Assembly (NCBI GenBank): GCA_965285935.1
Contig: OZ260661.1
Coordinates: 120,032,001 to 120,096,000, forward strand
Reading direction: 5' to 3'
Length of the DNA: 64,000 nt
From: Ophelia neglecta
Lineage: Eukaryota
Shown: one piece after another, positions 32,801-35,800 of the stretch
Layout: every line of letters begins with the position of its first letter
Position numbering within the stretch: position 1 is the first letter of the stretch
Made by a program: the position numbers and the translations under genes
The notes under the pieces: model-generated
What the model was told of the DNA's origin: nothing
The model's database searches: none
Seen by the model: the letters and a program-made list of their open reading frames with translations, nothing else

Positions 32801-35800
32801 GCCTTCCTGAAATTGTATTAATTAATATATAATTACAACTTTGCAGAAATTGAATTTAATATATAAACATAGATTGCTCTCCTCCTAAAAAATTGTCTGC
32901 TCCTGAATTGCATGATTTCAAAAAATGATCCATATTTCAGTTCTAAGGGAATGATTTGCCATAAACCATATAATTTTGTTTTACCAGCAACTGCTAAAAA
33001 AGCAAAATAAAAAATGAGCTGCTTTCTCAGCACATTTTCAAATGTGAAATTTCATGTGCAGGACAAGTGAATACTATTAGAATGAGGGCTATTCCTTTGA
33101 GAAGGGGGGGGGATAGGAGCTGAGTGGGCAAAAGATTTAAATAAGGTTGCTAGGGTGGAGAGGATTAGTTCCGAATTTAGGGGAAGATTCATGTTATTTG
33201 GCAGCAGGGGAGGAAGGGGGGGGGTTCCATCATTTAAATTAGGTGGGTATAGAAATTGAGCAGAACTGTGGCGCAAAGAACCTTGAAAAAAATTGAACCC
33301 TCTAATTCTTAAACTTTTTAATGGAATAGCCCTGATTTCGTATCTTAATGGCTTTTACAATTAAAAAATTAACAACATAGGCTGATTACCTTTTAGTTGT
33401 GCTATTTGGATGTAGCTCTTTCGAATTACAGGCGTCAATCTAAATATGAATAAATTCAGCCATTGTATTTTAATGTTGAAATCTGTCAAATTTTAAGCTA
33501 ACGTTTAATCATTCTGTTTGTTAGTTTTGCTGTTGGTTTTCTTCTCAGGTGGCTGAGAGAGCATTATACTATTGGAATAATGAGTACATCCTGAGCCTAA
33601 TTAGTGATAATGTTAGCGAAATACTCCCGATAATGTTCCCTGCACTATACAGAACCAAACAACATTGGAACAAGTAGGTATCCGAATGCTGCCCGGTCGA
33701 CTCCCAGATGTTGTTGCTTCTCTCCCTGGATTGCCTAATGGACTGGTCCATCCAAAGTTCTGGATCAATCCATTGGTCACCCACGGGGATGCCTGAACTA
33801 GATGTCATCACAACTATCCCTTGTGTGATTTCATTTTTTCTGTGCCTGTTGTATGCTTGAAAATATGATTGGCCTATAAATTTCTACTGTACATCAATCT
33901 TGCCTCATTTAATTTTGAATCTCTTCAATTTTCTTTCAAATTCGATCATGATAAAAACCTTTTTGTTGTTTAACACTCTGCCCATGCATAATGATTGGTG
34001 TGCAGTGGATATTGGTGGCCTGTCTTTTTCTTAGGTGCTGTAGGTTTGCGGCTGCCTGGGAACACACACAAGAAGCCACCCTACGGCTTAGTATGGCCTC
34101 TAACACGTGGTCAAGCATCTACAACCACCGTCCCATACATTGCACCCTTTGCCTGTAGTTCTAGTTGACTTATCTTATTTTTCTTTGCTGCGTGTTTAGG
34201 TCGCTGAACGAGCCTTATATTTCTGGAATAACGAATATATAGTTAGTTTGATCAGTGACAATGCAAGCACGATTGTTCCTGTCATGTTTCCGGCCCTCTA
34301 CAAGAGCAAAGAGCACTGGAACAAGTAAGCTGCATCCTCCGAGATCACATAGTGTACGATGGGCTCTAGGTTTGCATGGCATCTGCATGGTAGTAGTCAA
34401 CCAGGGTAGCGGCCATTTCTCTCAGATCACATCTTGCGCCTATTATGAATGTTTTTTCTTTCAAGGTGGTAGTATTAAGTTCTAAGGAATTAATTTGTTA
34501 TTGTTCTATCAAGGACATTTGGCAAGAATTCTAAAATAAGCTTGATGTAGCAATTTTAATTCAATTATTTACTCTGCTACCATTACAATCAAAATGGTGT
34601 TTTTCCTTTTGAATTTTACTTTAAATTTGCTACCATATCACCCAAATCTGAACTTGCATTATACAAAATGCCAATAAAGCACCCTAAAGTTTGTAACCTT
34701 TGGCCTCGTTTTTTGCTTTAATGAGTTTGTTCCCTGCACTTCATAATTGGTTTGTAGAGTTTTGAATGCGGTAATGGCACTACAGTGAGAAGGTAAAGAG
34801 CTGTTATTGTAGCATGTCCCATGTGCCAGAACCAGAGCTCATCTCTCGCTCCGTGATCTCTATGTATGGATAGTCTCTCAAGTTACTGTGTATGCACCAC
34901 ACCTGTATGAACAGAGTGTTCATGTACTTCGCACTACCACCGCCACTACTCCTAATGTGTGACATATTAGCCGCAGCCTATCAATTCATTCATTCTGGCT
35001 TTCTCTCCCCCCGTTCTCCACCAATCATCTGCCTGCTCCCCACCTGTTGCCGTGATCCTTGTGTGTGTCAAAGGTCGCCGAGCGTGGGCTGATCTATTTC
35101 CACAACCACTGTTTCATGCAGTTGCTAAGCGACCACCTAGTCACCATAATGCCCCTCCTGTTTCCGGCCTTGTACAGCCAATCCCAGGCCCATTGGAACA
35201 AGTAAGATAGAAACTCACTTCGGTACTGTCGCTACCAGTACTCACCTTTCTTTTGGGAACTGTGGCCTCTGCGCTTTCTCTTGGTGCAGGTTCTACACTT
35301 AACCTGGAAAAAATACAATTTCAACTGGCTGCCGGCGAAAGCTGCATATATTTATGTTTAACATTTCTCATCAGGGGATTAATTTGACTATTGTATTGAG
35401 TAGGTGGTGGCTGAGTAACATATGTGCTTTTGTCTTTCTCTTATCCATTCAGCCCTTCCTATCTAAAAGAAAACTACTGTAAAACCACAAATTATTTACG
35501 GTCATTTAATTGGTGGATTTCATAAAAGGCAAACATGGCTAGTCGCCAGTGTTTGTTATTTGCAGTGTATTACATTTTACTGGGCTCTAACTGGACTCTA
35601 TTCAGTAAACTTTTATCTAAGCGAAAGGGTCCAATGGAGGAAACACCAACCAAAGTAGTAACAAACATTTGTTGTTTTACAGTACCTTAAACCAAAAAGA
35701 AACAGTCTCATACTTATTAGATAATTAATTAATTTTATTTAGTCATTATCTCTAATTTTAACACTTCTGACTAACAACGTAGACTCAAGACTATATAGTT

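Follow-up and report, generated by a model that had tools for sequence, protein, structure and literature searches.

The B56 gene and its tandem exons

The window, by which we mean the whole stretch of 64,000 nucleotides that was analysed, lies in a 762-Mb animal genome and carries a gene encoding a PP2A B56 regulatory subunit. This gene has the signatures of the gamma/delta class, namely SD at 360-361, K-TIHG after HWN, and a C-terminal RRKSELP motif encoded in the last exon (residue numbers here are those of the human B56gamma chain). In a structure comparison the model of an annelid homologue of the b isoform matched B56gamma/delta structures best, and in the gene tree the host gene is grouped weakly (81/85) with those of Capitella, Ridgeia and Lamellibrachia. 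To judge from its sequence, the host animal is likely to be an annelid.

Between two constitutive exons of this gene three tandem copies of one exon were identified, all of them running from phase 0 to phase 2 and bounded by AG/GT ends. The features concerned are the following:

2987..43353, + strand, PP2A B56 regulatory subunit gene, gamma/delta class (approximate span of the coding exons, start of the first exon not fixed; tblastn with annelid homologues)
32393..32563, + strand, upstream constitutive exon (exon 10), ending in phase 0 (tblastn and frame analysis)
33549..33673, + strand, exon 11a, 125 nt, four-residue spacer RTKQ, CAG/GTAGGT
34200..34324, + strand, exon 11b, 125 nt, four-residue spacer KSKE, TAG/GTAAGC
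34952..35073, + strand, acceptor region of 11c, AAG, with a 95-nt AG-free zone (the longest of 15) and a 19/20 pyrimidine run about 73 nt upstream
35074..35201, + strand, exon 11c, 128 nt, five-residue spacer SQSQA, AAG/GTAAGA, no stop, GC3 0.79, split K codon at its end
36841..36942, + strand, downstream constitutive exon (exon 12), starting in phase 2 and supplying H and G of the T-K-H-G signature

The number eleven, given to these exons in an earlier note on this DNA, did not hold: by homology mapping nine coding exons precede the cluster, so that, if no exon escaped detection, it occupies the tenth coding position. The names 11a, 11b, 11c, 10 and 12 of that note were nevertheless kept. Exon 11a is one residue away from the Paralvinella protein P0007, and in the exon tree 11b falls in the starred annelid-b group with the b exons of Capitella and Ridgeia. 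The sole other match to this exon in the genome is an alpha/epsilon-like paralogue (L002), which has a single copy with EE, RISKE and HWNQ. A derivation of 11c from this paralogue was rejected, as L002 has no intron at the end of the exon and differs in the signature residues.

Exon 11c had been described as strongly diverged, with the motif ALY(Y/F)WNNEY replaced by GLIYFHNHC and with VAER, SD, FPALY and HWNK kept, and this was confirmed in the frame of 35074-35201. So was the length of its spacer, which is that of human B56gamma (RNSKT) and one residue more than in 11a and 11b. The 42 residues of 11c align without a gap to residues 342-383 of human B56gamma (21/42 identical) and to 418-459 of B56delta, and they match the Pfam B56 family (PF01603) with an E value of 4.3e-9 and 36.3 bits (cut-off 25). 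Compared with human B56gamma and B56delta (PPP2R5C/D; PDB 2NPP, 3FGA, 8U1X), 11c keeps E344 (delta E420), Y375 and HWN. The solved human chains, however, hold one version of the segment, in which 11c replaces A346, Y348, W350, N351, E353, Y354, S357 and K379. Five of its residues (G346, I348, H353, C354 and Q357) occur in none of 167 homologous segments, and seven changes affect columns that are at least 90% conserved, six of them within 346-354 and four of those six within 349-361. Phenylalanine at 350 is also present in two full-length nematode orthologues, so the change of W350 is compatible with a constitutive gene.

Some other features of the window deserve mention. The upstream exon 32393-32563 is unsplit here and in four relatives' loci (L023, L050, L066, L079), and is split after 18 codons by an extra intron in five others (L019, L057, L059, L062, L063), which implies an intron loss or gain. 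The intron after 11c contains at 36015-36562 a high-copy element bounded by 21-nt inverted repeats and with GGTCC repeats in its interior, which resembles a miniature transposon and has a read depth about 100-200 times that of its flanks. The intronic frame of 261 codons at 24320-25105 (+) has no Pfam match and looks like the terminal part of a non-LTR retroelement. Frames with an OTU protease domain and a GIY-YIG domain at 60830-63979 (-) are likely to belong to an OTU-carrying Penelope-like retroelement; a further stretch there, with no Pfam match, is presumably reverse-transcriptase-like. The neighbouring genes encode a protein of the MTP18 family (PF10558) at 50397-50846 (-) and an InaF-motif protein (PF15018) at 52117-52473 (+).

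A second c copy and the order of the duplications

Metagenome contigs were scanned with a pattern that recognises exons with a four-residue spacer followed by this intron, by which a c exon becomes visible only beside a or b. The pattern matched 84 stretches, and 83 loci were analysed, of which seven were chance matches and 76 had the exon: 34 with a only, 35 with b only, six with a and b (four distinct contigs, with a then b in tandem) and one with b and c. In this last locus (L037) exon b at 372-496 is followed at 1191-1318 by a third copy of 128 nt, stop-free and bounded by TAG/GTAAGA, with the spacer QTSQS and C at 350, which scores 47.8 bits against PF01603 (curated cut-off 25). It is the sole c orthologue found, on a contig of 1450 bp without flanking exons, and a check for stops and frameshifts proved it intact. 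At L037:1317-1318 the exon ends in the start of a Q codon instead of that of K384, which is second in the T-K-H-G signature.

The two c copies are identical at 21 of 42 residues, with saturated third positions, and share M356, the five-residue spacer, Q379 (present in 5/145 other segments) and the loss of W350 (2/145). The b exon of L037 differs from 11b at 5/41 residues, against 2/41 for the b exon of either L062 or L059, which indicates that the species are not close.

Exon c was absent from the full interval between b and the next exon in 4/4 closely scanned contigs (L019, L057, L062, L042), where the best local c scores were 24-34 against a null 95th percentile of 37; two contigs that end before the next exon (L040 and L059) stand outside this count. 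Among proteins, no c-type exon occurs in the 176 cluster members listed, none is clear among the best 150 of 152 phmmer matches (1.84 billion representatives; top identity 55%), and a protein word search with 11c gave one candidate and no scoring match. An unnamed protein of 46 aa (P0304), which ends at HWNK and has F350, D353 and a six-residue spacer, may be a lone diverged c-like exon.

Among the 69 single-exon loci many have b only (for example L005, L073, L049, L018) or a only (L075, L055, L048, L011) between the same flanking exons. L005 and L075 are separate long contigs with a common record prefix, and such loci are likely to reflect a gene duplication in which each copy kept one exon. 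Splice forms subfunctionalized after gene duplication, as described in the accessible part of PMC4417111, are similar to these many a-only or b-only loci of relatives, and not to the window.

Tandem mutually exclusive exons are a known phenomenon, of which 11c is an old and selected third copy. Our preferred reading, to which we give somewhat better than an even chance, is that 11c is an intact third copy that has been under purifying selection, likely to be the oldest branch and to be swapped in as a minor isoform, with the fold kept and a predicted change in partner choice.

As to its age, it had been proposed that c split off first and that a one-codon deletion then preceded the duplication into a and b. 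Among named matches the four-residue spacer was found in molluscs, annelids, a bryozoan and cestodes, and the five-residue spacer in Trichinella, other nematodes, a fish and human. M356 occurs in 0/70 segments with four spacer residues and in 49/75 with five; for S or A at 380 the counts are 1/70 and 49/75. Both c copies thus keep three outgroup states that have no counterpart in a and b: the longer spacer, M356 and a small residue at 380. The free tree, based like the other exon trees on 41-42 columns, likewise places both c copies outside a+b (86/95), although it puts the paralogue rows wrongly inside b; one tree label, Haliotis, was assigned from accession numbers. The proposed order is therefore favoured by the three outgroup-shared characters and by the unconstrained tree, but the AU tests reject no alternative. 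In these tests, run under a simpler model on a reduced alignment, from which the additional spacer column, the rows of the paralogue and the majority of the long rows had been removed, the p values were 0.57 for c+c, 0.65 for a+b, 0.43 for c with annelid b, 0.45 for c with all b, 0.36 for c+a and 0.56 for a+b+c.

The a/b pair and the four-residue spacer run across molluscs and annelids, so that the order of events is much older than the earlier note could see. An early spiralian duplication would have given c and a proto-a/b exon; in the latter a spacer codon would have been deleted and M356 replaced by L before the split into a and b, and c would later have been lost in many lines. Since c is absent from the four other complete intervals, an early split of c needs several losses, and its cost is that molluscs and some annelids must have lost c. 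We consider it, with moderate confidence, better founded than a late copy with re-insertion of the codon.

The main competitor, which we regard as unlikely, is that 11c is functional and of later origin: it would have arisen in annelids by duplication of 11b (or 11a), recovered a codon in the flexible spacer, and reverted by drift to M356 and a small residue at 380. It would require no mollusc losses, and it suits the restriction of c to two annelid-like records, with none among mollusc isoforms, as well as the position of c next to b. Moreover the c of L037 matches 11b at 27/41 residues and 11a at 24/41, the grouping of c with annelid b was not rejected, and the spacer lies in a short loop of the predicted structure, in its least confident part (pLDDT 54-72), where an insertion would be cheap. 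Nevertheless three separate returns to the outgroup state would be needed, against the placement of both c copies in the free tree. Exons 11c and 11b have identical codons in 9/20 cases, compared with 16/36 and 14/33 between the b exons of unrelated species; a rate no higher than between species gives no sign of recent copying.

Constraint on 11c and the choice of one exon

The synonymous sites of 11c are saturated against all five partners compared, which were 11a, 11b, the two L037 exons and the paralogue (pS 0.72-0.95, pN 0.33-0.36, Fisher p 7e-10 to 9e-4). A recent duplication of 11c was rejected on account of this saturation. As a pairwise ratio cannot assign selection to one branch, the substitution pattern was tested. 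All 18 hydrophobic core columns of 11c are still hydrophobic. In neutral simulations of substitutions alone, held at an equal level of identity and begun from three proxy sequences, this outcome appeared in 9, 2 and 6 of 3000 runs. None of 3000 such runs reached the profile score of 11c, and only about 30% were stop-free. Retention was higher at conserved columns (14/21) than at variable ones (9/21), which is not significant alone (p 0.11). The substitution pattern indicates that 11c has been under purifying selection and is not a case of plain decay. The end branch of 11c (1.0) exceeds that of the L037 c copy (0.43) about twofold or more, and the constraint, though real, looks looser or redirected.

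The possibility that 11c was once functional and is now silenced or decaying in this animal, its selection relaxed, its acceptor damaged and a stop absent so far by chance, appears improbable to us. It can draw on the long branch with its five unseen residues, on the losses of c in other lines and on the acceptor, since 11c has the only AAG of the gene, and a very recent loss may have occurred, to which sequence tests are blind. Such decay is nevertheless hard to reconcile with the strongly conservative substitutions seen in the neutral comparison, with the exact length and strong donor of the exon, or with its GC3 of 0.79 against a GC of 0.32-0.43 in the flanking introns. Contig X1 (34772-35360), the only contig for which every difference could be placed and which differs from the window at three bases and one gap, all of them outside 11c, argues weakly in the same direction.

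Regarding splicing, the earlier note had called the acceptor of 11c weak, and indeed its AAG is the sole one among the 15 acceptors examined. CTAAT at 34952-34956 is a weak candidate for the branch point, since it lies outside the AG-free zone. The donor, GTAAGA, is strong. A weak acceptor with a long AG-free zone, a distant pyrimidine run and a strong donor fit a regulated and rarely chosen exon.

When the reading frame was followed through the possible exon combinations, a single a, b or c gave a frame open to the last exon and its natural stop (3/3), whereas the five other combinations (none, a+b, a+c, b+c and a+b+c) led to an early stop. With a+c and b+c this stop falls inside c. Joint inclusion of all three exons, whose 378 nt are a multiple of three, was considered and rejected, as the stop falls inside b. 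Mutual exclusion would thus be enforced by the frame, with early stops leading to the decay of wrong products, and a weak, regulated acceptor would make c the rare choice.

Among the 176 cluster members listed, a subset of up to 15 per cluster and mostly from molluscs, 149 have b, 20 have a, none has both, and in seven the exon is not covered. In Sinanodonta and Patella (Patella caerulea) the a and b forms appear under one locus tag. A Tegillarca gene model (P0001) that joins a and b through a linker looks like a prediction error. In these relatives the annotated proteins bear out the choice between a and b. Exon 11c is likely to be spliced in place of 11a or 11b, and the c form is plausible as a minor isoform. 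For a germline role, which the earlier note gave as an example, the analysis yielded no support.

This cluster shares several characteristics with the tandem mutually exclusive exons catalogued in PMC9741552, PMC8373072 and PMC5740500, as described in the parts of these catalogues at hand: tandem homologous exons with the same phases and near-equal length, of which each transcript would contain one, and an ancient origin, with isoforms differing in one homologous segment. It differs from them in affecting the PP2A B56 subunit of spiralians and in that one of the three copies is a codon longer and far more diverged. PPP2R5 is absent from the main text of PMC9741552. In a full-text literature search, judged from titles and the starts of abstracts, no account of such an exon cluster in PP2A B56 was found. 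Forms a and b are already in public isoform annotations and, as far as we could find, have gone undiscussed, while c is in no protein set searched.

A 30-nt inverted repeat allows the middle of 11c to pair with the intron 190 nt downstream. Its arms, which we report as a lead only, are:

35121..35150, + strand, exonic arm, within 11c, of a possible RNA duplex around the 11c donor
35390..35419, + strand, intronic partner arm of the same possible duplex

The duplex has an energy of -35.8 kcal/mol, which was equalled by 3, 5 and 11 of 250 sequences under three nulls, and it is the best of five region pairs tried. Folding of the duplex region was no better than that of shuffles (z -0.1), no such duplex was seen in the 132 nt after the c copy of L037 (15/60 shuffles as good), and none was found for 11a or 11b against the proximal part of the intron between c and exon 12. 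No intron conservation with L037 survived multiple testing (best p 0.076). In docking-site/selector clusters, which rely on competing RNA structures, a conserved docking element pairs with a selector at every exon; what was observed here is a single borderline duplex, for c.

It seems very improbable that 11c is mainly regulatory, co-included with a or b so that transcripts decay and output is tuned, or that the two c copies are independent: the first idea has in its favour the stops inside c and the possible duplex around the donor, and the second the identity of only 21/42 between the copies, yet a poison exon needs no protein-level conservation of the kind that the c frame shows, the duplex carries the reservations just given, and the same position, the same length and the shared rare residues argue for one origin.

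Predicted partner binding of the c isoform

In the model of the annelid b-isoform homologue (P0365; 38 sequences, mean pLDDT 74) the exon is predicted to form a helix end (340-351), a short helix (353-361), a helix (363-370) and a loop before the last repeat, which is of lower confidence and contains the spacer.

According to the accessible part of PMC6398977, a small helix of human B56 (gamma 349-361) and position 380 help to decide between the binding of Sgo2 and of LxxIxE motifs. By alignment alpha 374-386 corresponds to gamma 349-361 and alpha 405 to gamma 380, a residue which is Q in a, E in b, and A (11c) or S (L037) in c. The first signature residue of the switch between B56alpha/epsilon (EPVA) and B56gamma/delta (TKHG) described in the same source is therefore located, together with helix 349-361, in the swapped exon. 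Exon b has E as do alpha and epsilon, and the L037 c copy ends in Q like the other paralogue class, when set against the part of PMC6398977 that covers these residues. In that description the human switch involves separate paralogous genes, while a single gene would achieve it here through its splice forms, with H387 and G388 fixed by exon 12. In human cells EPVA alone was insufficient to move B56gamma, as given in the same portion of that work. Since, in addition, exon 12 is gamma-like, the step from these exons to a switch of partners is an extrapolation.

Two further residues are of interest. The disease variant E420K of B56delta raises SLiM binding, according to the available text of PMC10769853, and the corresponding E344 is kept in 11c. 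By its spacing the kept Y375 would match Y365 of the Sgo1-interface mutant in the accessible part of PMC8256288, with the offset between the two numberings inferred. For the contacts of W350-Y354, or of B56delta 424-430, no residue-level account was found in the parts of the literature searched.

The suggestion that the c isoform has altered binding of the catalytic subunit or of partners can accordingly be narrowed. Since 11c retains VAER and HWNK, and its changes are concentrated at 346-357, a changed partner choice is likelier than a loss of catalytic-subunit binding; likewise, with E344 and Y375 kept, a retuning of partners is likelier than a loss of holoenzyme assembly. We therefore return to the preferred reading, in which the c isoform is predicted to keep the holoenzyme fold and to change its partner choice. 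Swapping Q, E or A at 380 along with the rewritten surface at 346-357 would retune the partners of the phosphatase or the sites that it reaches.

PP2A-B56 targeting decides the protection of cohesion, kinetochore signalling and the fate of many LxxIxE substrates. A splice choice over the isoform-specificity loop provides a natural series of variants in one protein background (Q, E, A or S at 380, with 346-357 intact or rewritten), which would directly test how this region steers partner binding. The cluster is also an old and apparently undescribed addition to what is known of spiralian gene evolution, and its third copy is unannotated in the protein sets searched. If 11c is silent, what remains is an ordinary ancient a/b exon pair and a relic.

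A bolder picture, which we think rather unlikely, is that of an early spiralian three-way splice switch of B56 over the helix and loop that vertebrates split between paralogues (centromere/shugoshin against kinetochore/LxxIxE). Exon 11c would then be the oldest branch and give a specialised, possibly meiotic, holoenzyme with its own set of partners, restrained by the weak acceptor and the exon-intron duplex.

The C-terminus of this protein may also vary. The frame of the second-last coding exon (40504-40842) continues beyond the likely donor and meets a stop at 40842, and its readthrough could give an alternative C-terminus without the RRKSELP tail, in the same region where the isoforms of relatives vary.
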